Assembly (NCBI GenBank): GCA_964372875.1 | Contig: CAYJTB010000002.1 | Coordinates: 21,576 to 85,575, forward strand | Reading direction: 5' to 3' | Length of the DNA stretch: 64,000 bases | Source of the DNA: an uncultured bacterium | GTDB lineage: Bacteria > Omnitrophota > Omnitrophia > Omnitrophales > JACQLI01 | Shown here: positions 18,508 through 32,762 of the stretch, piece by piece | Layout of the letters: each line of letters opens with the position of its first letter | Numbering within the stretch: the first letter of the stretch is position 1 | Made by a program: the position numbers and the translations under genes | The notes under the pieces: generated by a model | Seen by the model: only the letters and a program-made list of their open reading frames with translations | Told to the model about the DNA's origin: nothing | The model's database searches: none

Positions 18508-18536
18508 AGCGCCCGCTTGACGGGATTTAAATAAAT
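18508..18536 (+). promoter_or_regulatory. Sigma70-like promoter for the cysC operon (TTGACG-N17-TATAGT, with TGn extended -10)
   Basis: ttgacg ggatttaaataaatgtg tatagt, 68 nt upstream of the cysC GTG start, which is preceded by aaggaggag. Lies in the divergent region shared with the giant gene. Confidence 0.5.
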
Positions 18537-18603
18537 GTGTATAGTCTTAAGTCTTTTTATAACAAGGAGATAAGCTATTAAAACCGAAGGAGGAGTTAAA
18601 GAA

Positions 18604-19158
18604 GTGGGCAATAAGAAATATACCCTGCAAAGGGGGGTTACGATTTGGTTCACCGGTCTTCCTAGTTCAGGCAAATCCACGGTCGCCCGGATCTTGGAAC
18701 GCAATTTTCGCCAATGGGGTCTCAAATGTGAACTTTTAGATGGCGATGTGATCCGTACCAACCTCAGCAAAGGTCTGGGATTTTCCCGTGAAGACCGTGA
18801 CGCCAACATTAAACGCATCGGTTTTGTGGCGCACCTTTTGACCCGTAATGACGTCATTGCGATGGGTGCTGCGATTTCACCTTTCCGCGAAGCGCGGGAT
18901 TACAATCGCAAACTCATCGGCAATTTCGTCGAAGTGTTTGTGAAATGCTCTGTTGATGAATGTGAGAAACGCGATGTGAAGGGACTTTTTAAGAAAGCCC
19001 GCGCGGGAGAAATCAAAGGTTTTACCGGCGTGGATGATCCTTACGAAGAGCCGCTTCACCCGGAACTTATCTTAGAGACGGAAAAACAATCGGCTGAAGA
19101 GTCGGCGGATATCGTCGTGAAAAAATTGGAAGAGTTAGGATATTTGAAGGCTCAATGA
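18604..19158 (+). CDS. cysC: Adenylylsulfate kinase
   Basis: Walker A GLPSSGKSTVARILE. APS-kinase length and motifs (DGDVIR, FVSPF-like AISPFR). Confidence 0.85.
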   Translation: MGNKKYTLQRGVTIWFTGLPSSGKSTVARILERNFRQWGLKCELLDGDVIRTNLSKGLGFSREDRDANIKRIGFVAHLLTRNDVIAMGAAISPFREARDYNRKLIGNFVEVFVKCSVDECEKRDVKGLFKKARAGEIKGFTGVDDPYEEPLHPELILETEKQSAEESADIVVKKLEELGYLKAQ

Positions 19159-20000
19159 ATCAGGTCGATCTTCACATGCACACCACGCATTCCGACGGCA
19201 CTTTTCTGCCCCGGGATCTTGTGAAGCACGCGAAGGAGCGGGGACTCAAATGCATTTCCGTGACCGATCACGATACCATGTCGAGTTATGAGGAATGCCT
19301 TGATGAGTCAAAAAAGTTAGGGATCGAACTGATTCCAGGAATTGAAATCAGTGCCGATTTTGAGCCGGGGACCCTTCATATTCTTGGGTATTTTCTGGAT
19401 CCCGAGCAGCCGGAGCTAAAGAAAACGCTCCTCGATATTCAAAAAGCACGGCTTGAACGAAATCCTCAGATCATCAAGAAATTAAATAACATCGGAATTG
19501 ATATCACGCTGGAAGAAGTGATTGCTGAATCGGGCGGAAAACAAGTCGGGCGTCCGCATTTCGCGCGGGTACTTTTGAAAAGAGGCTTCATCAAAAACAT
19601 GGAAGAGGCCTTCCGAAAATATTTGGCCAAAGGAAAACCGGGGTACGTGGATAAACGCAGACTTTCTTCTAAAGACGCCATCCAGAGTATTCATCAAGCA
19701 GGCGGGATTGCATCCATCGCGCACCCTAAACAGATGAAACTCCAAGAGCCCGAACTTTCTAAAGAATTCGAGCGGCTCGTGGATGAGGGATTGGGTGGTA
19801 TCGAGGCGTACAATAGTTGCCAAAGCGCTGCCGAAGCCAAGATCTACAAGCAAATCGCAAAACGTTTTAATCTCATCGTTACAGGCGGTAGTGATTTTCA
19901 TGGCGCCAACAAACCCGACGTGCAGTTAGGAAGTTTTGGCGCAGACCTGGACTACAAAGTGATTGAAGACATGAAAAAGTTTGTATGGGTGAAGAAATGA
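19155..20000 (+). CDS. PHP-family metal-dependent phosphoesterase; candidate 3'-phosphoadenosine-5'-phosphate (pAp) phosphatase
   Basis: VDLHMHTTHSDGT...SVTDHD, PHP histidine motifs. ATGA overlap with cysC. The pAp assignment rests on operon context only. Confidence 0.65.
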   Translation: MNQVDLHMHTTHSDGTFLPRDLVKHAKERGLKCISVTDHDTMSSYEECLDESKKLGIELIPGIEISADFEPGTLHILGYFLDPEQPELKKTLLDIQKARLERNPQIIKKLNNIGIDITLEEVIAESGGKQVGRPHFARVLLKRGFIKNMEEAFRKYLAKGKPGYVDKRRLSSKDAIQSIHQAGGIASIAHPKQMKLQEPELSKEFERLVDEGLGGIEAYNSCQSAAEAKIYKQIAKRFNLIVTGGSDFHGANKPDVQLGSFGADLDYKVIEDMKKFVWVKK

Positions 20001-20024: not shown

Positions 20025-20804
20025 ATGGTGTTGGCAGAACACACGCTTGATCTCGCAAAATTAAATCAGGAGTTCGAAAAGAAAAAGCCGGAAGAGATTA
20101 TTGCTTGGGCGATCAAAGCATTCCCCGGCAAAATCGCAATGACCTCTTCTTTTGGTCCGGAGTCCGGCGTTTTGCTTCATATGGCAAGCCAGATCGATCC
20201 GGGCGTACCCGTTCTTTTCTTAGAAACCGGTTACCATTTTCAGGAAACCATCGTTTATAAAGAAGAGCTCGTAAAACTTTTGGGTCTGACGCGTCTCGTG
20301 GATCTAAAGGCTGAGCCCAAGAGAAAAGCGGAAGTCGTAAAACAATACGAAGGCGTTCCCTACGAAAAAAATCCGGACCTCTGCTGCCAAATCAATAAGG
20401 TCGAGCCCATGGACTTGGCGATGAAAGATTTCGACGCGTGGATGAGCGGTATTCGCCGGCACCAAACGGATTTCAGAAAATCGATTCGCGTTTTTGAAGA
20501 GTACAGGAAACCCGAAACGGGAAACCATCTCTACAAAATTAGCCCCTTAGCCAATTTCACCAGCCGGGAAATGTGGTGGTATCTGAAAGAACACAATATT
20601 CCCAAACACCCTCTCTATGACAAAGGCTATCTCAGTGTCGGCTGCTGGCCCTGCACGCGCCCCGTTCAACCGGGCGATGATGAACGCTCAGGCCGGTGGG
20701 CCGGAAAAACAAAAACAGAATGCGGTATTCACACTTTTTTAGAGATAAAAGAAGAAGAGAAAAAGGAAAAGAAAGACGGAATCAATTATTCGGGTGGAAT
20801 ATAA
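20025..20804 (+). CDS. cysH: Phosphoadenosine-phosphosulfate / adenylylsulfate reductase, thioredoxin-dependent, Fe-S type
   Basis: PAPS-reductase fold. Cys pairs DLCCQINK and SVGCWPCT typical of [4Fe-4S] APS reductases. C-terminal KTECGIH. Confidence 0.8.
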   Translation: MVLAEHTLDLAKLNQEFEKKKPEEIIAWAIKAFPGKIAMTSSFGPESGVLLHMASQIDPGVPVLFLETGYHFQETIVYKEELVKLLGLTRLVDLKAEPKRKAEVVKQYEGVPYEKNPDLCCQINKVEPMDLAMKDFDAWMSGIRRHQTDFRKSIRVFEEYRKPETGNHLYKISPLANFTSREMWWYLKEHNIPKHPLYDKGYLSVGCWPCTRPVQPGDDERSGRWAGKTKTECGIHTFLEIKEEEKKEKKDGINYSGGI

Positions 20805-20828: not shown

Positions 20829-22001
20829 ATGATACAGCCCCACGGCGGTAAACTCATCAATCGTGAACTTTCTGGAAACGAAAAAGAAGAGGCCAAGAAA
20901 AAAGTCACAACCCTCAAGACACTTACACTCGCACCCTGCGAAGTTTCAGACCTTGAGATGCTTGCAACAGGTGCTCTGAGTCCCTTAGAAGGATTTATGG
21001 GCCAGGCGGATTTTAATTCCGTTCTGGAAAAAATGCACCTGGCAACGGGGCCTGTGTGGACACTCCCCGTCGTAAAATCCATCTCCGCCGAAGACAAAAA
21101 CAATTTGAAAGCAGGCGAAGAGGTTGCGCTTCAAGATGAAAAAGGCGAAGCACTTGCGATTTTAAAAATCGGCGAGATTTTTCCTTATGATAAAACCAAA
21201 CATGCCCAAAAGGCCTACGGGACTTTAGAAGAAACGCACCCCGGAGTTGCGCGCGTAATGAGCGCCGGAGGATTTTTAGTTTCAGGAAAAATTTCTCTTT
21301 TCCAACGGCCCAAATACACGGATTTTCTCCAATATCGCCTTGATCCCGCAGAGACCAGAAAAACTTTTGAATCACGCGGATGGAAAACCGTGGTGGCTTT
21401 TCAAACGCGCAATCCCATTCACCGGGCCCATGAATACATTCAGAAATGCGCACTGGAAATTGTGGATGGTTTGATGATTCATCCCTTGGTGGGTGCCACC
21501 AAGGGCGACGATGTCCCGGCCGCTGTCCGGATGCGTTGTTACGAAGTCCTCATTGAAAAATATTACCAAAAATCTCGTGTCCTTCTTTCGGTTTTTCCCG
21601 CGGCCATGCGTTATGCGGGCCCCAAAGAGGCGATCTTTCACGCGATTGTGAGAAAAAATTACGGCTGCACGCATTTTATTGTGGGCCGCGACCACGCCGG
21701 AGTTTCAAGACCCGACGGAAAAGGTTTTTATGGTCCCTTCGATGCCCAGAAAATTTTTGATGAATTCAAACCGGGCGAGATCGGTGTGACGCCCTTTTTC
21801 TTCGAAAATTCTTTCTATTGCCGCGCCTGCAAATCCATGGCCACGGAAAAAATTTGTCCGCACGATGCCTCGGGACGCGTCTTTTTAAGCGGGACCAAAG
21901 TCCGCGAGATGCTCCTCAAAGGAGAAATTCCACCGGAAGAGTTTTCACGGCCCGAGGTTGCGCGCGTTTTGCTCGAAGCTTACCAAACCAAGGAGAATTG
22001 A
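20829..22001 (+). CDS. sat: Sulfate adenylyltransferase (ATP sulfurylase)
   Basis: QTRNPIHRAHE and GRDHAG motifs. Confidence 0.85.
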   Translation: MIQPHGGKLINRELSGNEKEEAKKKVTTLKTLTLAPCEVSDLEMLATGALSPLEGFMGQADFNSVLEKMHLATGPVWTLPVVKSISAEDKNNLKAGEEVALQDEKGEALAILKIGEIFPYDKTKHAQKAYGTLEETHPGVARVMSAGGFLVSGKISLFQRPKYTDFLQYRLDPAETRKTFESRGWKTVVAFQTRNPIHRAHEYIQKCALEIVDGLMIHPLVGATKGDDVPAAVRMRCYEVLIEKYYQKSRVLLSVFPAAMRYAGPKEAIFHAIVRKNYGCTHFIVGRDHAGVSRPDGKGFYGPFDAQKIFDEFKPGEIGVTPFFFENSFYCRACKSMATEKICPHDASGRVFLSGTKVREMLLKGEIPPEEFSRPEVARVLLEAYQTKEN

Positions 22002-22976
22002 TTGTCCGCACCCCAAAGGACAAAACCTGTTCTTGCTGAAGAAGCCATCGGCCTCATCGGCAACACGCCGCTCGTAAAACTTAAAAGAATGGTGAAGCCG
22101 GGCTCCGCCCAAATTTTTGCCAAAATTGAATCGATGAATCCCGGCGGAAGTGTGAAGGACCGGATTTGTCTCAGCATGATTCGTGATGCGGAAGAAAAAG
22201 GCCTCCTCAAAAAAGATTCTGTGATCATTGAAGCCACGAGTGGAAACACAGGAATCGGCCTTGCCCTTATTTCTGCGGTGAGGGGCTACAAACTGATTCT
22301 TACGATGCCCGACTCCATGAGTTATGAAAGGCAATATCTTCTAAGAAGATTTGGGGCCGAGCTTGTTCTTACTCCGGCACTTGAAGGAATGAAAGGGGCC
22401 GTTGAAAAAGCCGAAGAGCTTTCAAAGAAATACAAAAATACTTTTACACCGCAACAGTTTAGTAACCCTGCAAACCCCAAAGTTCACCGCGAGACCACCG
22501 CGGAAGAAATTTGGGAAGCGCTGGACGGAAAATTCGATGCGTTTGTGGCGGGCGTCGGCACCGGAGGAACCATCACCGGATGCGGCGAGGTCTTTAAACA
22601 AAGAAATCCAAAAATTAAAATTATTGCAGTAGAACCTAAGCGTTCGCCCGTTCTTTCAGGCGGTGAGCCTGGGTATCACCGGATCCAAGGAATTGGCGCG
22701 GGTTTTGTACCTGAGGTCTTGAACCGGCGCATCATCGATCAAATTTATCAAGCAGACGATGAAGCCTCTTGGGACATGTCACTTACCTTGGCAAAAGAAG
22801 AGGGATTGTTGGTGGGCGTCTCTTCCGGCGCGGCCTGTGTTGTGGCGCTGCAAGTGGCCAGTGAACTGGGAACTGGAAAAAGTGTGGTAGTTATTTTTCC
22901 TGACACCGGCGAGCGTTACCTTACTTCTGCCGAAGAATTCACACCGCGCGAGAGCGGCGCAAAACGCACTTCATGA
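22002..22976 (+). CDS. cysK: Cysteine synthase A (O-acetylserine sulfhydrylase)
   Basis: PLP-lysine region KIESMNPGGSVKDR. TSGNTGIGLA. Confidence 0.85.
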   Translation: MSAPQRTKPVLAEEAIGLIGNTPLVKLKRMVKPGSAQIFAKIESMNPGGSVKDRICLSMIRDAEEKGLLKKDSVIIEATSGNTGIGLALISAVRGYKLILTMPDSMSYERQYLLRRFGAELVLTPALEGMKGAVEKAEELSKKYKNTFTPQQFSNPANPKVHRETTAEEIWEALDGKFDAFVAGVGTGGTITGCGEVFKQRNPKIKIIAVEPKRSPVLSGGEPGYHRIQGIGAGFVPEVLNRRIIDQIYQADDEASWDMSLTLAKEEGLLVGVSSGAACVVALQVASELGTGKSVVVIFPDTGERYLTSAEEFTPRESGAKRTS

Positions 22977-22980
22977 AGCG

Positions 22981-24255
22981 ATGTCATACGTTAAGGGATT
23001 AAAATGCAGAGAGTGCAGCCGTCTTTATCCTAAAGAAGCGATCTATGTTTGCGAATACTGTTTCGGATCGCTCGAAGTTGATTACGATTATGACGCCATC
23101 AAAAAAGTCCTGAGCCGTAAAAAAATTTCTGACGGCCCTCGAAGCCTTTGGCGGTATCGCGAACTCCTTCCCATTGACGGCGACCCAACCGTAGGACTTT
23201 GGTCGGGCTTCACGCCTTTTTTCCGCGCGAAAAATCTGGCAAAGCGTCTGGGCGTTGACGAGCTCTACATTAAAGATGATTCGTCGAGCCATCCCACCTG
23301 GTCTTTTAAAGACCGCGTTGTCTCGATTGCACTTTCCAAGGCGCGCGAACTGGGTTTTGATACAGTCTCCTGCGCTTCCACCGGAAATCTTGCCCACGCT
23401 GTTGCGGCCCACGCGGCCCAAGCCGGATTCAAATGTTATATTTTTATTCCCTCGGATCTTGAACTCGCAAAAATTGTCGGCACGCTTGTTTGCGGTCCCA
23501 CACTCGTGGCGGTCCAAGGAAATTATGATGATGTGAACCGGCTATGCGCTGAAATCGCCGCCCGGTACAAATGGGCGTTTGTGAATATCAATATCCGTCC
23601 TTATTATGCGGAAGGATCCAAGACCTTCGGTTATGAGATCGCAGAACAGCTCGGCTGGCGAACACCTGACCACGTGGTGATTCCGGCAGCAAGCGGCTCG
23701 CTTCTGACAAAAATCTGGAAGGCCTTTAAGGAATTTGAAAAACTGGGGCTTCTTGAAAATTCCGTGAAGACACGTCTTCATTGCGCCCAACCGGACGGAT
23801 GTTCTCCTATCGCCAAGGCCATCTTGGAAAAATCCGAGGTGATCCGTCCTGAAAAACCCAACACGATTGCCAAATCTCTTGCGATCGGAAATCCCGCGGA
23901 CGGTTATTATGCCCGTGATGCCGTGCTACAATCGGGCGGTACCGCCGCACGTGTGAGTGATGATGAGATTCGCGAAGGGATTAAACTTTTGGCCGAGACC
24001 GAAGGTGTTTTTACAGAGACAGCGGGCGGCGTTACGGTTGCCGCAGCGAAAAAATTAATCAACGAAGGAAAAATCAACCGGAAGGAATCGATCGTTCTTG
24101 CCATCACAGGAAACGGTCTCAAGACCCAAGAGGCGATCCAAAAATCCGTGGGTTCACCCCTAGCGATCGAGGCCCACCTTTCTTCATTTGAAGAGCGCGT
24201 GATGGGAAAGTATAATGAGCAGCGTCGCGTCATTGCGAAGGAGCGAAGCGACTGA
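22981..24255 (+). CDS. Threonine-synthase-family PLP enzyme with an N-terminal Cys4 zinc ribbon
   Basis: KCRECSRLYPKEAIYVCEYCFG (CxxC...CxxC). PLP fold-II motifs (SFKDR, ASTGN). Directly followed by a ThiS-like gene. Confidence 0.65.
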   Translation: MSYVKGLKCRECSRLYPKEAIYVCEYCFGSLEVDYDYDAIKKVLSRKKISDGPRSLWRYRELLPIDGDPTVGLWSGFTPFFRAKNLAKRLGVDELYIKDDSSSHPTWSFKDRVVSIALSKARELGFDTVSCASTGNLAHAVAAHAAQAGFKCYIFIPSDLELAKIVGTLVCGPTLVAVQGNYDDVNRLCAEIAARYKWAFVNINIRPYYAEGSKTFGYEIAEQLGWRTPDHVVIPAASGSLLTKIWKAFKEFEKLGLLENSVKTRLHCAQPDGCSPIAKAILEKSEVIRPEKPNTIAKSLAIGNPADGYYARDAVLQSGGTAARVSDDEIREGIKLLAETEGVFTETAGGVTVAAAKKLINEGKINRKESIVLAITGNGLKTQEAIQKSVGSPLAIEAHLSSFEERVMGKYNEQRRVIAKERSD

Positions 24256-24322
24256 AGCAATCTCTTGTTGATTGCTTCGTTGGCTAACGCCTCCTCGCAA
24301 TGACTAATAAGGAGGATTCATC

Positions 24323-24607
24323 ATGCCTGTTAAAGTAAGAATTCCAACGCCCCTTCAAAAATTGACGGCCGATCAAGCGGAAGTCGATATTACTGCCAAA
24401 ACGGTGAAAGAACTTTTAGATGCATTAGAAAAGAAATATCCCGGCATCAAAGGAAGACTTTGTGACGAATCGGGCCGCGTGCGCCGGTTTGTAAACATTT
24501 ATCTCAACGAAGAAGACATCCGGTTCCTCAACCAAGAATCCACGGCACTTAAAGAGGGCGACGAGGTTTCCATCGTTCCTGCCATTGCCGGCGGAAAAAC
24601 TCTCTAA
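24323..24607 (+). CDS. MoaD/ThiS-family sulfur-carrier protein; C-terminal Gly-Gly followed by a 3-residue extension (…AIAGG-KTL)
   Basis: Beta-grasp-sized (94 aa). Ends [15 protein letters not shown] aaggagg upstream. Confidence 0.55.
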
Positions 24608-24854
24608 GATCACCGTGGCAAAAAAAGCGCTTCACCTTATCTTTCCGCAAAATCTCATCCAAGAGCCCATCATGTTCCTGGTGGCTCGCGACAACAATTT
24701 AGTCCTCAGCATTCGACGCGCGAAGATCACAGCGACCGCTGGAGAAGCGACCATCGAACTTGAAGGAAAAGAGAGCGATTTGGTCCAGGCCGAGCGCGTT
24801 TTCAAAGAAAAAGGGGTTCAGGTGAAAAGTGTTTTAGGGGACACGGTGGAATGA
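24585..24854 (+). CDS. Small NIL-domain-like protein (tentative)
   Basis: ...[49 protein letters not shown] resembles the MetN C-terminal NIL domain pattern. Start uncertain; overlaps the ThiS-like stop. Confidence 0.3.
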
Positions 24855-25855
24855 AAAAAGCCGAGATCCAATCTTTAAAAGAAAAAGTTTTAGCGGGCGG
24901 TGAAATTTCTTTTGAGCAGGCTGTGGAACTTATTCAATTAAACAGCCAGGAAGAAATCCAATCCCTTTTAGAATCGGCCGACGAAATCACGCGACGGTTT
25001 AATTCCAACGAACCCGGCCTCTGTTCGCTTCTAAATGCCAAGAGTTATTTGTGCGGCGAGGACTGCGGGTTTTGCGCCCAATCCGTTCGCTTTGACACCT
25101 CGGCAGACCGGTACGGCCTGATGCATCCCGAAAAAGTTGTGGAGGCCGCAAAACGGGCGGAAAAAAATGGTGCGCAGAATTTCTGCATCGTTACAAGCGG
25201 CGCGGCACCGGGTGAAGAAGAGTTTGAAAAAATTATCGAAATTTTAAAAAAGTTATCTGAGGAATCAAAATTAAACCTTGATGCCTCGTTAGGGTTTATC
25301 ACCGAAGAACAGGCCCGGCGATTAAAAGAAGCGGGCCTCCGGCGTTTTAATCACAATCTTCAAAGCTCCCGCGAGTTTTACCCGAATATTGTTTCTACCC
25401 ATAGTTATGACACACGCATTCAAACCATTCGCGCGCTGGTCCAAGGCGGACTGGAGCTTTGTTCGGGTGGAATCCTCGGAATGGGAGAAACGCACGAAGA
25501 CCGTGTGAAGCTCGCTTTCGAATTAAAACAACACACTCCGCATTGCATCCCAGTCAACGTACTCAATCCCCGGCCCGGCACTCCGCTTGAAAACCAACCC
25601 AAGCCCGACCCGCGTGAGATTTTAAAAACCATTGCTGTCTTTCGCTTCGTCCATCCGCGCGCCAATATCAAATTAGCCGGCGGGCGTGAAATCAATCTCA
25701 CTGCGGAGGAGCAAGTCTTGGCACTGAAAGGCGGTGCCAACGGCCTCATCATGGGAGGCTACCTCACCACCGAAGGCAATCCGGTGCGGGAAGATTTTCG
25801 AATGCTGGAGGAAGCGGGCTACCAAGTTCCACAGCATGAAGCCCGTCCTTCTTAA
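24851..25855 (+). CDS. bioB: Biotin synthase
   Basis: Radical-SAM CGEDCGFC. BioB-like NFCIVTSG and C-terminal motifs. Confidence 0.85.
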   Translation: MKKAEIQSLKEKVLAGGEISFEQAVELIQLNSQEEIQSLLESADEITRRFNSNEPGLCSLLNAKSYLCGEDCGFCAQSVRFDTSADRYGLMHPEKVVEAAKRAEKNGAQNFCIVTSGAAPGEEEFEKIIEILKKLSEESKLNLDASLGFITEEQARRLKEAGLRRFNHNLQSSREFYPNIVSTHSYDTRIQTIRALVQGGLELCSGGILGMGETHEDRVKLAFELKQHTPHCIPVNVLNPRPGTPLENQPKPDPREILKTIAVFRFVHPRANIKLAGGREINLTAEEQVLALKGGANGLIMGGYLTTEGNPVREDFRMLEEAGYQVPQHEARPS

Positions 25856-25857
25856 GT

Positions 25858-26577
25858 TTGCTTGATCAAAAAAATATCCTCATTACCGGCGGCACCAGCG
25901 CGTTAGGAAGCGCCTTCGTCCGAAAGGCCGTTGGGGCGCACGGCCGCGTTTTTTTCACCTACCATCAGCATGAAACGCTCGCTTCCGAACTCCGCGCACT
26001 AGGCGCAGAAGGTTTTAAACTAGACCTCGCCTCTACCCCACAAATCGATGTCTTCCAAAAAGAATTCAGGGCCAAGGTCAAAATCCTTCATGTCTTAATC
26101 CACAATGCTGCGGCCACGAAAGATGCTACTGTACAAAATATGAGTGACGCCCAGTGGGATGAAGTGATGAACGTCAATCTCAAGGCACCCTATCTTTTAA
26201 CAAAAAAACTTTTGTCTCCGCTTTTTAAGGCTGATCCCGCGAAGATCTTTTTTATGATCAGCCGGGGCGCTCTTCAAGGAATCTTTGGCGCTGCTAATTA
26301 TGCGGCTTCTAAGGCAGGCCTTGTAGCGCTTACCAAATCACTGGCCCAAGAACTGGGGCGGAAAAATATTTTGGTCAATTCCGTGAACCCGGGCTTCATG
26401 AAATCGCGCATGACCGAGCCTCTCCCGCCGGAAGTTTTTGAAAAAAATATCAAAGAAAGCGTGTTGGGAAAAATCTCTAACCCCGACGAAGTCGCCGATT
26501 TTCTAATTTACCTTTCCAGTAACCACATGACCCAAGTGAGCGGCCAAATCTTCCACTTCGAGTCCCGCAAGATATGA
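25858..26577 (+). CDS. Short-chain dehydrogenase/reductase (FabG-like 3-oxoacyl-ACP reductase)
   Basis: ITGGTSALGSAF (Rossmann). NAA...YAASKAG catalytic triad region. Confidence 0.75.
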   Translation: MLDQKNILITGGTSALGSAFVRKAVGAHGRVFFTYHQHETLASELRALGAEGFKLDLASTPQIDVFQKEFRAKVKILHVLIHNAAATKDATVQNMSDAQWDEVMNVNLKAPYLLTKKLLSPLFKADPAKIFFMISRGALQGIFGAANYAASKAGLVALTKSLAQELGRKNILVNSVNPGFMKSRMTEPLPPEVFEKNIKESVLGKISNPDEVADFLIYLSSNHMTQVSGQIFHFESRKI

Positions 26578-27172
26578 AGCGCGCAGAATCTCCGCCTCCG
26601 TGGGATGCTCGGTCATCAGTAAAATCTTTATCCGCTGCAGGCACGAGTCTCGTCGCCACTCGGCGGGAATCCCCCCAAGCTCCTTCGGCGCTCAATGGCT
26701 CCAGCTTTTGGAAAAGACTAAGGCTGCTTCGCCGGGGGTCCCTCGCGGTTCCGGCCTCAGAAGGCCAGCCCGCGCTTCCCCCCCGGACGAATCAGCCGAG
26801 TTTTTCCGAAAAGCCTCCGCTATTCGCGCCCTCCGGACTTGGGGAGATTCCCGAACGTATCACGGTTGCATTAGAAGCAGAATCTCCGAAACTGAGGCGG
26901 CGTAGGGGCCGTACGAGAAAAATTCGGAATCAATTTTTCTCGAGGCCCCACGAGCGGAGGACGACTCCTTGTCCGCTGACTTACCCCTCATTCATGGTTG
27001 CATCTTCCCAGAATACGTTTGCTTCCAAACCGGCCGCGTTCATTTGGCAAAATAACTTTTATGTTTTCTCATCTGTTCAATTGTCGTCCGAGCGTCCGCC
27101 GAAGGAGGAGATTCTGCTATCAAAGCATGTCGGTTGCGGAGGAGTCTCCGAAACGGCAAGGGGAGTTTGCTT

Positions 27173-28375
27173 GTGAATCGACGAGTTGTGATTACAGGAA
27201 TGGGGGCGGTGACGCCGGCAGGGGTGGGGATTGAGGCATTTCGAAAATCACTGCGGGAGGGCCGGTCGGGATGCGGACCCTTAACATGTTTTGACCTCAC
27301 AGGATTCAAAGTCAAAAATGCTTTCGAGATAAAAAATTTCACACCCCTTCACGGAACCCGTCTCTTGGATCCTTTTATTCAATACGCACTTTGGGCTACC
27401 AATGAAGCGGCTCAGATGGCGCAATTTGATTCTTCATCCATGGATCCTTACCGAATGGGAATTGTGGTCAGTTCCAGCAAGGGAGGGCTTCACTCTTTTG
27501 ACGCGTTTCGCCAGAGGCTTGAACGAAATCCCAGCGTCATCCTTGGCGCGCGCGTTTACTCCAACACGGTTCCGAATTTTGCCGCCCAGTGGATTGCCAG
27601 AAAATGGAAAATATCAGGACCCGCCAAATGTTATGTGACAGCTTGCGCAACGGGTACGACCTCCATTATAGAAGGCGCCCGGATGGTTCAGGAAGACCTG
27701 GTCGATTATGTTTTTGCAGGTGCAGGCGATGCCTCACTTGTTCCTTTTCTTGTGGCAGGGTATGAGCAAATGGGAGTTCTTTCACCCGAGGGAATGTACC
27801 CCTTTGACCAAAGGCGGAAAGGTTTTCTTTTAGGAGAAGGCGCGGGTGTGGTACTCCTCGAAACCCTCGAAAGCGCCGAAGCGCGCGGCGCAAAAATTTA
27901 CGGCGAGATCGCAGGCTTTGCTTACGGAAATGATTGTTACAGTCCGGTGGCCTTTGATCCCAAAGGAGATTCACTCGCCCGAACACTCAAAAAACTTTGT
28001 GATGTTTTAAAAATAAACCCTGAGGAAATCGATTATTTAAACCTTCACGGTACCGGAACCATCGATGGCGATCTTTACGAAACGAATCAAATCAAACGGG
28101 CGTTTGGAAAAAAAGCTTATGAAATTCCTACTAGCTCCACGAAGTCGATCACAGGACACATGCTTGGCGCATCCGGGGCTGTTGAAATCATCGCGTGTTG
28201 TATCGCCATGGAAGAAGGTTTTGTTCCGCCTACCGCCAATTTAGAAAAACCGGATCCCCAATGCGATTTGGATTACACACCGCTCAGGGCACGCAAGCAA
28301 AAAATCCAAACGGCGATTTCTCATTCCATGGGTTTCGGCGGACATATCGCAGCCGTTGCTCTTAGGAAAACATAA
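27173..28375 (+). CDS. Beta-ketoacyl-ACP synthase I/II family (FabF/FabB-like)
   Basis: I chose GTG 27173 as the start, with SD aaggggag; NRRVVITGMGAVTPAGVG. Active-site Cys region (ACATGT) and His-His motifs (HGTGT, GHMLGASG). Confidence 0.8.
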   Translation: MNRRVVITGMGAVTPAGVGIEAFRKSLREGRSGCGPLTCFDLTGFKVKNAFEIKNFTPLHGTRLLDPFIQYALWATNEAAQMAQFDSSSMDPYRMGIVVSSSKGGLHSFDAFRQRLERNPSVILGARVYSNTVPNFAAQWIARKWKISGPAKCYVTACATGTTSIIEGARMVQEDLVDYVFAGAGDASLVPFLVAGYEQMGVLSPEGMYPFDQRRKGFLLGEGAGVVLLETLESAEARGAKIYGEIAGFAYGNDCYSPVAFDPKGDSLARTLKKLCDVLKINPEEIDYLNLHGTGTIDGDLYETNQIKRAFGKKAYEIPTSSTKSITGHMLGASGAVEIIACCIAMEEGFVPPTANLEKPDPQCDLDYTPLRARKQKIQTAISHSMGFGGHIAAVALRKT

Positions 28376-29518
28376 ATGGAAAGCCTCCTTACCACAGAAT
28401 TAAAAGAAATTCGCTTGAAGGGACTCTACCGGAAATTAAAAACGCTTTCTCCCGGCCAAGGCGCCCATGCCGTTTGGCGAGGAAGAGATCTCCTTTTATT
28501 TTGCGGAAATGATTATTTGGGTTTAAGCCGGCACCCTCGTGTTATTCAAGCCGCCCAGGAAACCCTTGAAAAATATGGCATTGGCGCCGGTGCCGCTCGT
28601 TTGATCTCCGGCACAAGCGATTTGCACAGCCAATTGGAAGAGGAACTCGCCCGCTTCAAATCAAAAGAGCGAGCGCTCCTTTTCGGTTCAGGTTATCTGA
28701 CCAATCTTGGAGTCTTGAGTGCCGTTGCCGGAAAAGAAGATCTCATTGTGATGGATAAACTTTGCCACGCCTCACTCATTGACGGGGCCAGACTCTCCGG
28801 CGCCATCATCCGAGTGTTTCCTCACAGAGACTATTCAAAGTGTAAGGAGATTTTAGAAAAAAGCCCCGAGTTTCGCAGGAAAATTCTTGTCTCCGACACT
28901 ATTTTTAGTATGGAGGGTGACCAAGCAGATTTAGAAGAACTTATTCAGATCAAAAATAAGTATAAGTGCCTTCTTGTGGTTGATGATGCGCATGGCGTAG
29001 GAGTCTTCGGCCCGACGGGCAGAGGACTCACCGAGGGAAAAGAAAAAGAAATCGACGTCATTGTGGGGACGCTTTCAAAGGCCTTCGGAGTTTTTGGGGG
29101 TTTTGCCGCAGCCTCTCGAACCCTCGTCGAATATTTCATTAATTTCTCGAGGTCTTTTATTTTTGCGACCGCACCGCCGCCGCTCGTCGCGGCCGCTGGT
29201 TTAGAGGCGCTTCATCTCATTCAAGAGGATCCATCTCTGCGTCAGAAGCTTTGGCGCAATATAGAACAAGTAAAAAAATTTCTCAAACCCCGGAATTTTT
29301 CATTTGAAAAAGCATCGCCTATTTTTCCAATTGTTTTAGGAGATGAGAAAAAAGCCGTAGAAGTTTCAGAGACACTTTTGGAACATGGAATCCTCATCCC
29401 CCCCATTCGGTACCCTTCCGTTCCAAGAGGTAAAGCAAGGCTGCGATTAACGTTAAGCGTCTCCCACACGGAAGAAGATTTGGAACAACTCTTCGAAGTA
29501 CTCCATAAAGTTTTATGA
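28376..29518 (+). CDS. bioF: 8-amino-7-oxononanoate synthase
   Basis: Alpha-oxoamine synthase PLP enzyme (GTLSKAFG). Position in the bio operon. Confidence 0.8.
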   Translation: MESLLTTELKEIRLKGLYRKLKTLSPGQGAHAVWRGRDLLLFCGNDYLGLSRHPRVIQAAQETLEKYGIGAGAARLISGTSDLHSQLEEELARFKSKERALLFGSGYLTNLGVLSAVAGKEDLIVMDKLCHASLIDGARLSGAIIRVFPHRDYSKCKEILEKSPEFRRKILVSDTIFSMEGDQADLEELIQIKNKYKCLLVVDDAHGVGVFGPTGRGLTEGKEKEIDVIVGTLSKAFGVFGGFAAASRTLVEYFINFSRSFIFATAPPPLVAAAGLEALHLIQEDPSLRQKLWRNIEQVKKFLKPRNFSFEKASPIFPIVLGDEKKAVEVSETLLEHGILIPPIRYPSVPRGKARLRLTLSVSHTEEDLEQLFEVLHKVL

Positions 29519-30870
29519 GAACAAGACACCTCAAGCAACTCGACAAGAAATATATTTGGCATCCCTTTACGCAAATGGCGGATTGGCAAAAAGAAGACGT
29601 CCTGATTATTGATCGGGCCAAAGGAAATTATTTGATTGATACAAAAGGCAAACGCTATTTGGACGGTGTATCCTCTCTTTGGTGCAACGTTCACGGGCAC
29701 CGGGTAAAAGAAATCGACCACGCCATCAAAAAACAATTGGAAAAAGTAGCACACAGCACTTTTCTCGGGCTTTCCAATGTCCCGGCCATTGAACTCGCCG
29801 AAAAATTAATTTTGATTGCACCGAAAGGACTCACACGGGTTTTTTATTCGGACTCGGGGTCCGAGGCCATGGAAATTGCTCTCAAGATGGCTTACCAATA
29901 TTGGCAGCAAAAAGGAAAAAAGAAGAAGACAAGGTTTCTACGCTTAAGCAATGCTTATCATGGAGACACATTGGGTGCGGTGAGTGTGGGAGGGATCGAA
30001 CTCTTTCATCAAACTTATCGCCCGCTTCTTTTTAAAACCTTCGAGGCGCCGAGTCCCTATGTTTACCGCTGGCCCGCGAAAGGCCGCACAGGGTCGCGCG
30101 AAGAAGTGATGGAAGAGTCTCTAGCCGCACTCGAATCTATCCTGAAAAAACATTCTTCAGAAATCGCCGCACTGGTGATGGAGCCTTTGATACAGGGAGC
30201 GGCCGGCATGATCGATCAACCGAGGGGTTATATTTCAGGAGCGCGAAAACTGACCTTGAGGTACAATACCCTCTTGATTTTTGACGAAGTAGCCACAGGA
30301 TTTGGTCGTACAGGACGGATGTTTGCGTCAGATCACGAAAGGGTGACTCCGGACATTATGGCCGTTGCCAAAGGGCTCACAGGAGGTTATCTCCCACTTG
30401 CGGCAACTCTAACCAAGGAAAACGTTTACAAGGAATTTCTTGGCGACTACTCCGAATTCAAAACTTTCTTTCACGGCCACACTTATACGGCCAATCCGCT
30501 TGCTTGCCGGGCGGCCCTCGCCAACCTCAAAATTTTCCGCACGAAAAAAACGCTTGAGAAATTGCAGGATAAGATCGATCTCTTAAGGAACAGATTGAGT
30601 AGCTTTTCAAATCTCGAACACGTCGGAGACATTCGCCAAACAGGCTTTATGGCCGGAATCGAACTCGTAGAAGATCGCGCTACAAAAAAATCATATCCTG
30701 CGGAACAAAAAATAGGCATCCGTGTGACCCGCGAAGCGCGCAGACGCGGGGTGATTTTACGGCCCTTAGGAAATGTCATCGCCCTCATGCCGCCTCTTGC
30801 GATTACAACCAAGGAACTTCATCAATTGCTAGACGTTACCTGCGAATCCATTAAAACGGTAACCCAATGA
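29515..30870 (+). CDS. bioA: Adenosylmethionine-8-amino-7-oxononanoate aminotransferase
   Basis: Class-III aminotransferase (DEVATGFGRTG, KGLTGGYLP). Confidence 0.85.
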   Translation: MRTRHLKQLDKKYIWHPFTQMADWQKEDVLIIDRAKGNYLIDTKGKRYLDGVSSLWCNVHGHRVKEIDHAIKKQLEKVAHSTFLGLSNVPAIELAEKLILIAPKGLTRVFYSDSGSEAMEIALKMAYQYWQQKGKKKKTRFLRLSNAYHGDTLGAVSVGGIELFHQTYRPLLFKTFEAPSPYVYRWPAKGRTGSREEVMEESLAALESILKKHSSEIAALVMEPLIQGAAGMIDQPRGYISGARKLTLRYNTLLIFDEVATGFGRTGRMFASDHERVTPDIMAVAKGLTGGYLPLAATLTKENVYKEFLGDYSEFKTFFHGHTYTANPLACRAALANLKIFRTKKTLEKLQDKIDLLRNRLSSFSNLEHVGDIRQTGFMAGIELVEDRATKKSYPAEQKIGIRVTREARRRGVILRPLGNVIALMPPLAITTKELHQLLDVTCESIKTVTQ

Positions 30871-31598
30871 AAAAAGCCGCCGGAATTTTTATTATAGGAA
30901 CGGACACAGGCGTCGGAAAAACCGTGGTGGCCGCAGGACTTGCCCTTGTCTTGAAGGAACGCGGCATGCGGGTCGGTGTGATGAAACCCGTAGCGACCGG
31001 ATGTTTTGGAGAGGGGAAGCGGCTTATTTCAGGAGATGCGGTTTATTTATTAGAAGCCGCTGAAAACGAGCGCCCTTATCTTGCCAATCCGCTTCGTTTT
31101 AGAAATCTGCTGGCCCCCAGCGTTGCCAGCGTCATTGAAAAAAAAGAAGTGCCGATTGAAAAAATCTTGAAGGCCTACCGGGAGCTGCAGCGTCATTATG
31201 ATTTTATTATTGTCGAAGGAATCGGCGGACTTTTAGTTCCGCTCACAAAAGATTATTTTGTGGCCAATCTCATTCACGAATTTGGTCTTCCTTTGATGGT
31301 GGTTGCCCGGGGGGGGCTCGGAACTATTAATCACACGCTTCTTACAATAGATGCAGCAATCATTCGGGGGTTTGAAATCCGGGGTATCATTTTTAACCGG
31401 ATGCCGCGTGTCAATTTCTCCATAGCGGAGATCACGAATCCTAAAGTGATCCACGACATCACAGGCATTCCCGTGCTCGGGACGTTGCCGGAACTGGATG
31501 ATGTGGACGTAGAAACCTGCCGCTTTGGGAATCTCAAAGAAGTCTTCCGCGAACGGATTGATCTGGACCAGCTTTTCCGGTTCGAGACCATTTCTTAG
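30867..31598 (+). CDS. bioD: Dethiobiotin synthetase
   Basis: GTDTGVGKT P-loop. BioD length. Confidence 0.85.
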   Translation: MKKAAGIFIIGTDTGVGKTVVAAGLALVLKERGMRVGVMKPVATGCFGEGKRLISGDAVYLLEAAENERPYLANPLRFRNLLAPSVASVIEKKEVPIEKILKAYRELQRHYDFIIVEGIGGLLVPLTKDYFVANLIHEFGLPLMVVARGGLGTINHTLLTIDAAIIRGFEIRGIIFNRMPRVNFSIAEITNPKVIHDITGIPVLGTLPELDDVDVETCRFGNLKEVFRERIDLDQLFRFETIS

Positions 31599-31676: not shown

Positions 31677-32762
31677 ATGAAACCAGTGCTTAGGAATCAA
31701 AAAATCCTTGTCGCAATGTCCGGGGGAGTGGACTCGAGTGTGGCGGCCGCTTTGCTTGTGGAGGCGGGCCATGAAGTCGCCGGGGCCACCATTAGGACAT
31801 GGGCGAGCAGCACGTGTGTGGACCGGAACACGCGCTCCTGCTGTGGTCTGACCGGAGTCGAGGATGCGCGAAGCGTGGCCGAGCGGATCGGCATCCGTTA
31901 TTGGGTTTTTAATTTTGAAGAAGAGTTTAAACGCCACGTCGTCGATTATTTCGCCAGCGAATATTTCAAAGGCCGAACCCCCAACCCCTGTATTGCCTGT
32001 AATGAACATATCAAGTTTCGCCTTTTCTTAAAACGCGCCCGCCAACTCGGTTTTGACGCCATCGCCACAGGCCATTATGCGAAGCTCCAAGAAGATCACG
32101 CGGGCAATTGTTATATCGAAGAAGGTGCAGATCCCGCCAAAGATCAATCTTATGTTCTTTTTCCTCTCGATCAAGATGTCTTAACGAATCTTTATCTGCC
32201 GCTGGGAGGTTATCAAAAATCGGAAATCCGTCAGAAGGCGCGCGATCTGGGTCTCAGTGCTGTGATGGAAAAACCGGATTCCCAGGAGATTTGTTTTATC
32301 CCAAGCAATAACCACGGGATTTTTTTACAAAAAGAATTCGATGCCCCTCAACAGGAAGGCGTCATCCGGACAAGAGAAGGAAAGATCCTTGGAAAACACA
32401 CGGGTTATTATCAATATACAAGAGGCCAGCGCCGGGGCCTTGGTGTTGCCTTTACTGAAAAACTTTATGTCCTCGAAACGATCCCCGAAACCAACGAAGT
32501 GATTGTCGGGACCAAAGACGAAGTGCTGGATGTGGAGTTTTGCGTTGCGCGGGTCAATTGGTTTTTAAGGCCTCAAGAAAAAAATTTCAAGGCCCTTGTG
32601 AAAATCCGGTCTCAGCATGTGAAGGCCCCTGCTCAAATCGAGATTCTGAAAGATCAGGAAGTCCGGGTCCATTTTGAAGAGCCCCAAGAAGCCGTCACAG
32701 CAGGTCAGGCCGCCGTTTTTTATGACGGCACCAAAGTTTTAGGTGGCGGGTGGATTGCGTAG
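31677..32762 (+). CDS. mnmA: tRNA-specific 2-thiouridylase
   Basis: PP-loop ILVAMSGGVDSSVAA. MnmA Cys and C-terminal domains. Confidence 0.85.
   Translation: MKPVLRNQKILVAMSGGVDSSVAAALLVEAGHEVAGATIRTWASSTCVDRNTRSCCGLTGVEDARSVAERIGIRYWVFNFEEEFKRHVVDYFASEYFKGRTPNPCIACNEHIKFRLFLKRARQLGFDAIATGHYAKLQEDHAGNCYIEEGADPAKDQSYVLFPLDQDVLTNLYLPLGGYQKSEIRQKARDLGLSAVMEKPDSQEICFIPSNNHGIFLQKEFDAPQQEGVIRTREGKILGKHTGYYQYTRGQRRGLGVAFTEKLYVLETIPETNEVIVGTKDEVLDVEFCVARVNWFLRPQEKNFKALVKIRSQHVKAPAQIEILKDQEVRVHFEEPQEAVTAGQAAVFYDGTKVLGGGWIA

Follow-up and report, generated by a model that had tools for sequence, protein, structure and literature searches.

What do a threonine-synthase-fold enzyme, a small sulfur carrier and a NIL-domain protein do side by side at the tail end of a sulfate-assimilation operon? 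The question arises from three adjacent genes on the forward strand of Omnitrophota DNA (positions 22981-24854), lying within a 64-kb stretch that was analysed as a whole and is referred to below as the window. A preliminary description of the locus had placed a sulfur-carrier module at these positions, and domain profile matches located all three genes there. In the experimentally described MetM/MetO pathway, a ThrC homologue and a sulfur carrier make homocysteine in a thiocarboxylate-dependent manner (Hasebe 2024; bioRxiv 10.1101/2024.10.14.618325; PMC12172450), the reaction being the conversion of O-phosphohomoserine and MetO-thiocarboxylate to homocysteine (bioRxiv 10.1101/2024.10.14.618325). 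We estimate a probability of roughly 70% that the three genes form a homocysteine synthase module of this type with an extra, conserved NIL subunit.

Composition of the locus

The features of the operon, and of a gene pair lying farther downstream, are given by window position, strand and supporting match.

18517-18545, promoter-like site ahead of cysC (consensus match only)
18604-19158 (+), cysC (APS kinase), first gene of the operon (PF01583, 6e-61; NCBIfam adenylyl-sulfate kinase)
19155-20000 (+), PHP-family phosphatase, probably a 3',5'-bisphosphate nucleotidase removing PAP (PF02811; NCBIfam NF041577 at 234 bits, below its cut-off)
20025-20804 (+), cysH (PAPS/APS reductase) (PF01507, 4e-45; NF002537 above its cut-off)
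20829-22001 (+), sat (ATP sulfurylase) (PF01747 and PF14306; NF003166, 541 bits)
22002-22976 (+), cysK-type cysteine synthase (TIGR01139, 437 bits)
22981-24255 (+), MetM-like Zn-ribbon PLP enzyme of threonine-synthase fold, 424 aa (PF00291 PALP, 2e-70)
24253-24280 (+), hairpin in the 67-nt spacer between enzyme gene and carrier gene (RNA fold of 24240-24330)
24323-24607 (+), MetO/CysO-like sulfur carrier of ThiS/MoaD fold, 94 aa (PF02597, 1.6e-19)
24615-24854 (+), stand-alone NIL-domain protein, 79 aa, GTG start (PF09383, 33.5 bits)
54659-55558 (+), cysM-type cysteine synthase (PALP, 3e-65)
55558-56016 (+, start approximate), JAMM/Prok-JAB metalloprotease, Mec-like (PF14464, 3e-19; JAMM motif HSHVEAGAYFSDED)

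The three-gene arrangement recurs in Omnitrophota relatives and in many other phyla, and the juxtaposition is therefore not a matter of chance. The phosphatase gene likewise keeps its position in loci L001 and L003. The spacer hairpin is predicted to be stable (-28.5 kcal/mol, z = -2.4) and lacks a following T run, and the carrier gene is preceded by a strong Shine-Dalgarno sequence, AAGGAGG. Searches of the whole 64-kb window with Rfam at gathering thresholds returned no SAM or other riboswitch, and no sulfite reductase gene was seen within it.

The PLP enzyme and its carrier

By profile matches the PLP enzyme resembles a threonine synthase: it passes the curated models NF006050 (305.4 versus 303 bits) and TIGR00260 (299 versus 167 bits), its closest solved relatives are real ThrC enzymes (~5e-59) and its relatives carry the name 'threonine synthase' in their sources. 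Together with the fact that no other thrC gene is visible within the 64-kb window, and with the threonine-synthase activity of a cyanobacterial member in vitro (PMC12172450), these matches favour the reading that the enzyme is an ordinary threonine synthase and that ThiS and NIL serve something else, e.g. molybdopterin synthesis or tRNA thiolation. We consider this very unlikely, because a ThiS gene adjoins the gene for a clade enzyme in ~70 of 80 species-level genome loci across phyla, and because MetM is 'often misannotated' as threonine synthase according to GapMind (bioRxiv 10.1101/2024.10.14.618325). Evidently the two curated models fail to tell the ThiS-linked clade from ThrC. Profile assignment of the enzyme, which the preliminary description had suggested, hence returned a ThrC-fold protein that passes the NCBIfam thrC models yet belongs to a distinct, ThiS-linked clade.

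Within that clade, the window enzyme shares 57-73% identity with ThiS-linked homologues from 80 genomes and ~60% with the cyanobacterial homologues, while an actinobacterial sequence (P0308, a Micromonosporaceae representative) reaches 50-53% by two measures and has the clade motif. The alignment shows ribbon cysteines C9, C12, C24 and C27 to be invariant or nearly so across the clade and the PLP lysine, K110 in SFKDR, to be invariant. In total, 36 alignment columns set the clade apart from canonical ThrC. Its A-[SG]-G-S-L-x-T-K stands where four solved ThrC structures have a G-N-x-G-N loop, with A237 and G239 present in 85/85 clade sequences; the window enzyme itself reads A-S-G-S-L, STGNLA and NIRPYY, the counterparts in solved ThrC being G-N-x-G-N, STGNTS and SVNPYR. 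The G-N-x-G-N loop was found in the ThrC of B. subtilis, Aquifex, M. tuberculosis and Arabidopsis, and also in a second ThrC, ribbon-less and 363-366 aa long, that is encoded immediately downstream of the module in loci L011 and L012. Both the missing loop and this coexistence with a canonical ThrC argue against an ordinary threonine synthase. As judged from these alignments, the PLP enzyme is a non-canonical ThrC and a member of a ThiS-linked clade spread over many phyla.

Since MetM and ThrC share the substrate O-phosphohomoserine, a full threonine-synthase active site is a weak discriminator between them, and it is clade membership and synteny that decide the question. A cyanobacterial homologue with a metO-like neighbour has 51.6% identity to MetM (PMC12172450), and the proposed orthology of the window enzyme to S. 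albulus MetM rests on a two-step identity chain via the cyanobacterial homologues together with synteny. The cyanobacterial member showed threonine-synthase and deaminase activity in vitro and MetM activity was not clear there (PMC12172450), an observation that counts against the MetM assignment.

The carrier ends in AIAGG followed by KTL, so that the ThiS/MoaD-like protein with a post-GG extension that had been noticed at first is borne out; this tail is short and non-conserved. Among solved structures the carrier matches best to M. tuberculosis CysO (3DWG_C, 1.8e-18) and to the CysO of 4N6E, and ThiS genes adjoining cyanobacterial MetM-like genes encode proteins of 62-68% identity. With the moaD model TIGR01682 reaching 28 bits against a cut-off of 66, the carrier is, by profile, CysO-type and not MoaD proper, which again speaks against an ordinary threonine synthase accompanied by a molybdopterin or thiolation carrier.

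The position of the enzyme gene, between cysK and a CysO-like carrier within a cys operon, raises the alternative that the enzyme uses O-phosphoserine instead of O-phosphohomoserine, making the module a second CysM/CysO-like route to cysteine or another beta-substituted amino acid. Activity on O-phosphoserine is within the range of ThrC-fold enzymes. One ThrC homologue is cysteate synthase, whose model TIGR03844 gives a weak match here (84 bits versus a cut-off of 325). We nevertheless regard this substrate as quite unlikely: dedicated cysK and cysM genes already travel with the module and would make a third such enzyme redundant, elsewhere NIL domains are linked with methionine and homocysteine and not with cysteine, and the characterised family member turns O-phosphohomoserine into homocysteine (bioRxiv 10.1101/2024.10.14.618325). 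That the module is of the MetM/MetO type is, in our assessment, highly probable.

A cysM-JAMM pair had also been reported 31 kb away from the carrier, and it is present downstream at 54.7-56.0 kb, the GTG start of the JAMM gene overlapping the cysM stop codon. This distant pair can be matched to the module because the same pairs lie directly beside enzyme, ThiS and NIL genes in other phyla; window cysM has 50-58% identity to the cysM genes found beside JAB and the module in loci L013-L015, L020 and L042. It is closer to E. coli CysM (2BHS, 8e-66) than to M. tuberculosis CysM (2e-52). Among the 84 loci examined, homologous JAB genes adjoin the module in 14 and ThiF-family E1 genes in 15. Window cysK in turn has 59-63% identity to cysK genes next to E1-enzyme-ThiS-NIL in Nitrospirota, and in Nitrospirota and further phyla cysK keeps synteny with the module, often with a JAMM or E1 gene adjoining; this synteny suggests that the cysK-like enzyme may use the carrier and not compete with it. 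The earlier proposal of thiocarboxylate-dependent cysteine or homocysteine synthesis running parallel to CysK is therefore supported for the route by domains, clade and synteny, while 'parallel' is uncertain with cysK itself syntenic.

The preliminary description had further called for a ThiF/MoeB E1. Pfam searches of the larger open reading frames, inspection of 1-6 kb and a six-frame search with an HMM built from related E1 proteins found none within the 64-kb window, which counts against a MetM/MetO module.

The NIL protein and its linkage to the enzyme

The third gene had been read as a small NIL-like frame starting at TTG 24585 and overlapping thiS. Its domain and fold stood up and its start did not: given relatives of 79-80 aa, we set the start at GTG 24615, which removes the overlap. 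The profile match exceeds the PF09383 gathering score of 24, and an AlphaFold2 model (pLDDT 89.4) searched with Foldseek ranks MetN C2 domains first (TM 0.83, rmsd 1.2 Å), so that the fold check suggested initially returned a beta-alpha-beta-beta-alpha-beta fold of the MetN C2 type. A match to the MetN C2 profile (7e-8) agrees with the model. The protein consists of the NIL domain only and has no 4Fe-4S ferredoxin domain, and a DUF39-like neighbour is found neither in the genes called in L001-L004 nor in the neighbour families that recur. The label 'L-aspartate semialdehyde sulfurtransferase ferredoxin', carried by 80-aa NIL proteins in the sources, is unsupported by their domain content.

The best 120 matches listed in the NIL profile search were all close relatives, and family diversity was drawn from genome and metagenome scans. 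Across the family a conserved Cys is absent, and an N-I-R-x-A motif is otherwise strongly conserved, its consensus Asn aligning with N295 of MetN, where the substitution N295A abolishes L-Met binding (PMC6233128). This position is Ser in the window protein and a few relatives, and Asp in Phycisphaerae and one Nitrospiraceae locus (L017). The Ser of the window's own NIL counts against methionine sensing.

NIL genes follow the enzyme across wide phylogenetic distances. They lie beside the enzyme gene in 31 of 80 genomes, in Nitrospirota, Chloroflexota, Planctomycetota, Thermodesulfobacteriota, Methylomirabilota, Verrucomicrobiota, Elusimicrobiota and Sumerlaeota, and in all arrangements seen NIL comes directly after the enzyme or the carrier. 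A reciprocal metagenome scan seeded with NIL only found the enzyme directly upstream in 76 of 80 loci, and in 35 of the 36 with at least 1.5 kb of upstream sequence; the broad NIL alignment held no conserved stretch usable as a search pattern, so the pattern came from a narrower alignment and these counts are biased towards the Chloroflexota/Nitrospirota NIL subtype. A literature search found no description of a NIL domain together with a sulfur carrier or MoaD. Judging by gene neighbourhoods, NIL appears to be a widespread companion of the MetM/MetO route for which we found no description in the literature. About 37 cyanobacterial loci have the module without an adjoining NIL gene, which indicates that NIL is not essential to the chemistry; as an observation, these loci count against NIL as an essential part.

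In the window the ATG of bioB overlaps the NIL stop codon (ATGA at 24851), and the NIL-bioB order is kept in L001-L005, as might be expected if carrier and NIL delivered sulfur to biotin synthase. We give this reading next to no weight. The adjacency of bioB is confined to these Omnitrophota-type loci; outside Omnitrophota-like loci bioB is nearby in 0/26 genome loci with an enzyme-adjacent NIL, it is nearby in 0/80 NIL-seeded metagenome loci, and NIL tracks the ThrC-like gene instead. An association of NIL with bioB was rejected on the absence of bioB from all NIL loci of other phyla.

The closest form of linkage is seen in six independent ThiS-GG-linker-NIL fusions, in which NIL (PF09383, 52-60 bits) follows the GG and a JAB gene is nearby in 6/6. 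Such a fusion guarantees 1:1 synthesis of carrier and NIL, and is consistent with NIL being a stoichiometric adaptor or chaperone that docks or protects the ThiS C-terminus or thiocarboxylate and hands it to the enzyme, some lineages making a ThiS-NIL pro-protein split by JAMM and the rest of the module being unchanged. The constant position of NIL after enzyme or carrier, and the lack in the window protein of the Asn matching methionine-binding N295, would also fit. Against an adaptor, MetN C2, the one NIL domain with a characterised function, binds methionine and acts allosterically, conservation of the N-I-R-x-A motif is otherwise strong, cyanobacterial enzyme-carrier pairs run without NIL, and the family has no conserved Cys with which to handle sulfur. 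We consider the adaptor rather unlikely on balance. The role that we favour, tentatively, is that NIL partners the enzyme and senses methionine or homocysteine, as the modelled fold suggests.

Predicted pathway and comparison with known systems

Domain identities, clade membership, synteny, fusions and fold are observed here, and from them we infer substrates, chemistry, tail cleavage and a regulatory part for NIL. The carrier would be made as a GG-KTL pro-form and trimmed to its GG end by the JAMM protease at 55.6 kb, after which a ThiF/MoeZ-type E1, presumably encoded outside the window, would adenylate the GG terminus and lead to the thiocarboxylate, with reduced sulfur supplied by the Sat/CysC/CysH branch. 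The PLP enzyme would then eliminate phosphate from O-phosphohomoserine and add the carrier thiocarboxylate at C-gamma, and an S-to-N acyl shift with hydrolysis of the adduct would release homocysteine. The JAMM protease may thus serve both KTL trimming and hydrolysis of carrier adducts. The same carrier probably serves the cysM-like enzyme for cysteine, as CysO does in M. tuberculosis, and possibly also the adjacent cysK-like enzyme. NIL would sense a small ligand, whether methionine, homocysteine or something closely similar, and by binding to the enzyme, the carrier or both would restrict the share of O-phosphohomoserine that enters homocysteine as against threonine.

A more far-reaching version of this proposal, which we offer with greater reserve, is that in most non-cyanobacterial lineages NIL is an unrecognised third MetM/MetO subunit, a methionine/homocysteine sensor homologous to the MetN trans-inhibition domain, which would bind enzyme and/or carrier and set the split of O-phosphohomoserine between methionine and threonine; in some lineages it would be made as a ThiS-GG-NIL pro-protein split by JAMM. 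If true, this pro-protein would be a bacterial parallel to ubiquitin fusion precursors, and sensing of methionine/homocysteine would be common to the three known NIL contexts, MetN, MA1822 and the present one. Members of the enzyme clade occur very widely, among others in Omnitrophota, Nitrospirota, Chloroflexota, Planctomycetota and cyanobacteria, and are uniformly annotated 'threonine synthase'; recognition of the clade as MetM-type would change pathway reconstructions and auxotrophy predictions in many uncultured lineages, this Omnitrophota genome included. The reciprocal NIL linkage and the post-GG fusions provide a concrete hypothesis for NIL outside MetN and point to protein-level control where the threonine and methionine routes part at O-phosphohomoserine. 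The naturally occurring ThiS-NIL fusions also lend themselves to the study of how JAMM processes a ubiquitin-like pro-protein in bacteria.

The closest known system is MetM/MetO, which was reportedly described from Streptomyces albulus by Hasebe, Adachi, Maruyama and Hamano in Appl Environ Microbiol in 2024. In both cases a threonine-synthase homologue, annotated as threonine synthase, adjoins a ThiS/MoaD-type carrier, a Mec-like JAMM protease is encoded in the genome and the context is methionine/sulfur assimilation. GapMind lists the S. albulus steps as MetM/MetO with Mec and MoeZ, and the conserved NIL third member found here is not among the listed steps of the published pathway (bioRxiv 10.1101/2024.10.14.618325). 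The S. albulus metM gene has a SAM riboswitch (PMC12172450) whereas the window has none. The module also differs here in the post-GG tail of its carrier and in being embedded in a sat-cysC-cysH-cysK operon.

The cysteine pathway of M. tuberculosis consists of CysM, CysO, Mec+ and MoeZ, and we take structures 3DWG and 3DWM to belong to this CysM/CysO system. CysO is the best solved relative of the window carrier, translation of a cysM-type enzyme is coupled here to that of a JAMM protease, and in both a thiocarboxylate attacks, or would attack, a PLP-bound aminoacrylate-type intermediate to give an adduct that is then hydrolysed. The differences are that 31 kb separate the cysM-JAMM pair from the carrier, that window cysM is nearer to the E. 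coli enzyme, and that the enzyme neighbouring the carrier has a ThrC fold. To our knowledge no NIL protein is part of that system in M. tuberculosis.

The HcyS/HcyD/HcyF/MetY homocysteine pathway of Wolinella succinogenes (Krishnamoorthy and Begley 2011, as cited in PMC5764234) likewise leads from a protein thiocarboxylate to homocysteine, is linked to sulfate-assimilation genes, and has a carrier whose C-terminal extension is removed by a JAMM protease, as predicted here. Its condensing enzyme is MetY, an O-acetylhomoserine sulfhydrylase of fold type I and not of ThrC fold, its activated substrate is a different one, and it has no NIL protein.

For NIL itself, two comparisons apply. In MA1821/MA1822 of methanogens and Desulfovibrio (DUF39 plus NIL-ferredoxin), the NIL domain is genetically required for sulfide-incorporating homocysteine formation (PMC5764234), again tying NIL to a non-canonical homocysteine route; aspartate semialdehyde is the starting compound of that pathway, which does not pass through homoserine, and here there is neither a ferredoxin domain nor a DUF39 or COG2122 partner. 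The MetN C2 domain of the MetNI importer (3DHW, 3DHX, 3TUZ) has the same fold, and the N-I-x-x-A motif aligns with N295. The window NIL differs in being a stand-alone protein instead of the C-terminal domain of an ABC ATPase, in lacking a 4-residue loop of MetN and in having Ser at the N295 position, and it would partner a biosynthetic enzyme or a carrier instead of a transporter. Set beside these systems, the core enzyme-carrier pair is of a known pathway type, and the NIL gene is the less expected part.

The gene array around the module

The three-gene module and the cysM-JAMM pair claimed in the preliminary description are both present according to Pfam, NCBIfam and solved relatives, and the module sits in a long, co-directional plus-strand array running from cysC through bioB and further biotin genes:

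18604-19158 (+), cysC, array member
19155-20000 (+), PHP-family phosphatase, array member
20025-20804 (+), cysH, array member
20829-22001 (+), sat, array member
22002-22976 (+), cysK-type cysteine synthase, array member
22981-24255 (+), ThrC-like PLP enzyme, 424 aa; PF00291 2e-70; NCBIfam threonine-synthase models passed
24323-24607 (+), ThiS/MoaD protein, 94 aa; solved relatives are CysO
GTG start at 24615 (+), NIL-domain protein; PF09383, 33.5 bits against a cut-off of 24
directly 3' of the NIL gene (+), bioB and further biotin genes, array members
54659-55558 (+), cysM-type gene; stop codon overlaps the JAMM gene start
ending at 56016 (+), Prok-JAB/JAMM gene; start overlaps the cysM stop

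A NIL gene had been placed here from a TTG at 24585 that overlaps thiS; the gene stands, and since its relatives are 79-80 aa long and start MAKK..., its real start is the GTG just 3' of the thiS stop. Its own stop codon overlaps the bioB ATG. Within the 3' end of the ThrC-like gene lies a promoter-like site, TTGAAG-17-TATAAT (10/12 matches, a consensus match only), and the spacer 5' of thiS holds a stable hairpin (24253-24280; 24240-24330 fold dG -28.5 kcal/mol, z -2.4). Together these predicted elements (24188-24330, +) could uncouple carrier, NIL and bio expression from the upstream genes.

The biotin operon directly 3' of the module (bioB-SDR-KAS-bioF-bioA-bioD, 24851-31598, +) includes a FabG-like SDR (25858-26577) and a KAS I/II-like condensing enzyme (27134-28375), an arrangement kept in the Omnitrophota-type loci L001-L004; these two genes may provide a dedicated route of pimeloyl-thioester synthesis. 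The bio genes are followed, likewise in L003, by mnmA (tRNA 2-thiouridylase), another sulfur-transfer function within the array, and a 296-aa PP-loop ATPase with weak NAD_synthase/QueC matches (31677-33640, +). Further 3' are RnfC-like (Complex1_51K, RnfC_N and 4Fe-4S domains) and RnfD/NqrB-like genes (33813-36575, +), beside which small ORFs have no Pfam match. Upstream of cysC, a 4108-aa ORF (6105-18431, -) carries ~10 near-identical copies of the motif RSEVHPNRLDSGTPPSSPERARAEVR between unique segments; relatives have a giant gene at this same place, in L003 one of 4909 aa with weak CsrA and sigma-70 region 4 matches. The names borne by close homologues assign the organism to Candidatus Omnitrophota.

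The ThrC-like enzyme and canonical threonine synthase

The nearest solved relatives of the ThrC-like enzyme are true ThrC enzymes (~5e-59), and its relatives are named threonine synthase in databases. Its N-terminal segment of ~56 residues, outside the coverage of solved ThrC structures, holds C9, C12, C24 and C27, which are invariant or nearly so among relatives. Were this an ordinary ThrC, with ThiS an unrelated neighbour, synteny, paralogue coexistence and motif changes would all have to be set aside, and they speak against such a reading. A scan limited to a single genome for each species yielded 80 loci whose encoded proteins share 57-73% identity with the window enzyme (Nitrospirota, Chloroflexota, Planctomycetota, Thermodesulfobacteriota, Aquificota, cyanobacteria, Verrucomicrobiota, Acidobacteriota, Elusimicrobiota and others), and ORF and jackhmmer analysis found a ThiS gene adjoining the enzyme in ~70 of them. 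In two Nitrospirota loci (L011, L012), enzyme-ThiS-NIL stands immediately before another ThrC, 363-366 aa long and lacking the ribbon, so that two paralogues coexist. At 36 alignment columns, moreover, the clade shows conservation of at least 90% and departs from three canonical ThrC sequences. The canonical loop P-V-G-N-A-G-N-I-[ST]-A of B. subtilis, Aquifex and M. tuberculosis ThrC (G-N-L-G-N in Arabidopsis) has the clade counterpart P-x-A-[SG]-G-S-L-x-T-K, in which 85/85 sequences have A237 and G239; STGNTS is changed to STGNLA and SVNPYR to NIRPYY. As a lead only, we take the changed segments to be those that enclose the PLP phosphate and the substrate phosphate in the pocket of Thermus ThrC structures. 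Judged by ThiS synteny, ThrC coexistence and clade-specific residues, the PLP enzyme, whose assignment the preliminary description had marked for checking, is of the ThrC fold, yet of a separate clade linked to ThiS.

MetM of Streptomyces albulus is a ThrC homologue that converts O-phosphohomoserine to homocysteine with the thiocarboxylate of the MetO carrier, has Mec, a JAMM hydrolase, and MoeZ, an E1, as accessory enzymes, and according to GapMind (2026) carries the threonine synthase label in error ('often misannotated'). The clade pattern of the window enzyme fits this pathway. A Microcystis 'ThrC' with a metO-like neighbour gene has 51.6% identity to MetM (PMC12172450), and the window enzyme is ~60% identical to cyanobacterial members and 50-53% identical to an actinobacterial (Micromonosporaceae) representative with the same clade motifs. 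Through such intermediate homologues, orthology to S. albulus MetM is strongly suggested, though not proven. A cysteine synthase using O-phosphoserine, a less likely function with which the sequence is still compatible, would be redundant given two linked cysK/cysM genes.

Distant Zn-ribbon ThrC-like proteins (P0392, P0403, P0442, P0400, P0421, P0425, P0436 and P0445; 36-39% identical) carry C-terminal fusions, a PadR winged-helix domain in some and a LeuA allosteric (leucine-feedback) domain in others. These appear to be uncharacterised ThrC-fold enzymes that are regulated or themselves regulate, and regulatory-module recruitment thus seems a superfamily habit.

The sulfur carrier, its accessory genes and the NIL protein

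Among solved structures, the carrier comes closest to M. tuberculosis CysO (3DWG_C, 1.8e-18) and to the 4N6E CysO. The GG-KTL ending reported for it is indeed seen, and of the 71 orthologous carriers compared, 48 stop at the GG, with 1-8 further residues, not conserved, in the other 23; on sequence comparison, the post-GG tail is a family trait. In many cyanobacterial loci (L024/L026/L032/L043/L057/L060-L062/L064), the MetO-like gene downstream of the enzyme is accompanied by another, divergent ThiS/MoaD-like gene (84-92 aa) upstream of it; in L024, the one inspected, this second gene's product ends PPVSGG.

The module is often complete in related loci, ordered cysK, ThiF-family E1, enzyme, ThiS, NIL and, ~1 kb further, JAB in Nitrospiraceae, cysM-JAB-enzyme-ThiS-NIL in Caldimicrobium, and sat-JAB-cysK-enzyme-ThiS-NIL-bioB in the Omnitrophota relative L001; the E1, JAB, Rrf2 and TusA identities of recurrent neighbours are backed by Pfam. 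The window cysM is 50-58% identical to cysM genes adjoining JAB and the module elsewhere, which marks the remote cysM-JAMM pair as belonging to this system, though displaced, and upholds the proposed match of the JAMM gene to the module. The window cysK is 59-63% identical to module-linked cysK of Nitrospirota. A thiocarboxylate route parallel to CysK had been proposed; the route is supported, but the adjacent cysK may itself be a carrier user. No E1 is encoded within the 64-kb window; unless another part of the genome encodes one, the model fails. Two kinds of gene recur beside Thermodesulfobacteriota-type ThrC-like/ThiS-NIL modules (e.g. L013:5341-5805, L015:2766-3020): Rrf2-family regulators, at 4 loci, and TusA-like sulfurtransferases, at 3. 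They are candidates for transcriptional control and sulfur donor of the system, respectively.

The small ORF is NIL-like, as had been suggested, by both its PF09383 match and its AF2 model (pLDDT 89.4, beta-alpha-beta-beta-alpha-beta), whose best structural matches are C2/NIL domains of the methionine importer MetN (3TUZ, 3DHW, 3DHX; TM 0.83, rmsd 1.2 A). In the PDB, a profile of diverse family members matched MetN C2 domains (7e-8) and nothing else. The conserved Asn of the family (motif N-I-R-R-A) aligns with MetN N295, and N295A reduces L-methionine binding to undetectable levels (PMC6233128); the window protein and a few relatives have Ser at this position. No cysteine is conserved across the family, which makes persulfide relay or Fe-S chemistry less likely and sets it apart from the MA1822 NIL-ferredoxin. 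No NCBIfam model names the window protein, its relatives bear 'NIL domain-containing protein' or transferred names (MetN subunit; aspartate-semialdehyde sulfurtransferase ferredoxin), and within the literature searched no paper mentions NIL domains alongside either a sulfur carrier or MoaD.

NIL adjoins the enzyme or carrier in 31/80 genomes, spanning essentially all non-cyanobacterial phyla sampled (enzyme-ThiS-NIL or enzyme-NIL-ThiS), and in 0 of ~37 cyanobacterial loci. A reciprocal metagenome scan, seeded with the NIL peptide pattern [VIL]VTNIRRA[DE] alone and biased to one NIL subtype, gave 80 loci with a ThrC-like gene directly upstream in 76 (35/36 where at least 1.5 kb of upstream sequence was available), ThiS directly downstream in 52 and bioB in none. 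Only the Omnitrophota-type loci L001-L005 have bioB next to NIL, and this phyletic pattern speaks against the idea that carrier and NIL deliver sulfur to BioB. In six loci ThiS and NIL form single polypeptides of 171-190 aa, in which ThiS ending ...PAIAGG is joined by a linker of ~3-25 residues to NIL; Pfam finds both domains, and a JAB gene is near in 6/6. A Planctomycetales locus (L059:2139-2672) encodes a tandem NIL-NIL protein where a single NIL is expected.

Proposed pathway and comparison with MetM/MetO

From these identities, the fold, clade, synteny and fusions, we infer the following scheme. The JAMM protease would trim the carrier from GG-KTL to GG, and in fusion lineages would free ThiS from NIL. 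An unlinked E1 would then make the carrier thiocarboxylate out of assimilated sulfur, and the ThrC-fold enzyme would use it for gamma-replacement on O-phosphohomoserine, yielding homocysteine; cysM, and possibly cysK, may draw on the same carrier for cysteine. NIL may sense methionine or a related ligand and modulate the enzyme or carrier. The main alternative is that NIL acts as a stoichiometric adaptor or chaperone of the carrier, which the 1:1 ThiS-NIL fusions favour. A regulatory, ligand-sensing NIL is plausible because MetM and ThrC compete for O-phosphohomoserine and no riboswitch is found within the window, whereas S. albulus metM has one (PMC12172450).

The module core is most likely a new member of the pathway described in 2024; it offers no new chemistry and would represent a widely distributed, mis-annotated methionine route. 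What sets it apart is that a NIL partner is conserved, that this partner is in some loci fused to the carrier, and that the genes lie in separate places in the genome. The NIL partner goes beyond the MetM/MetO pathway as summarised in GapMind, and the module suggests a concrete, testable role for the NIL domain.
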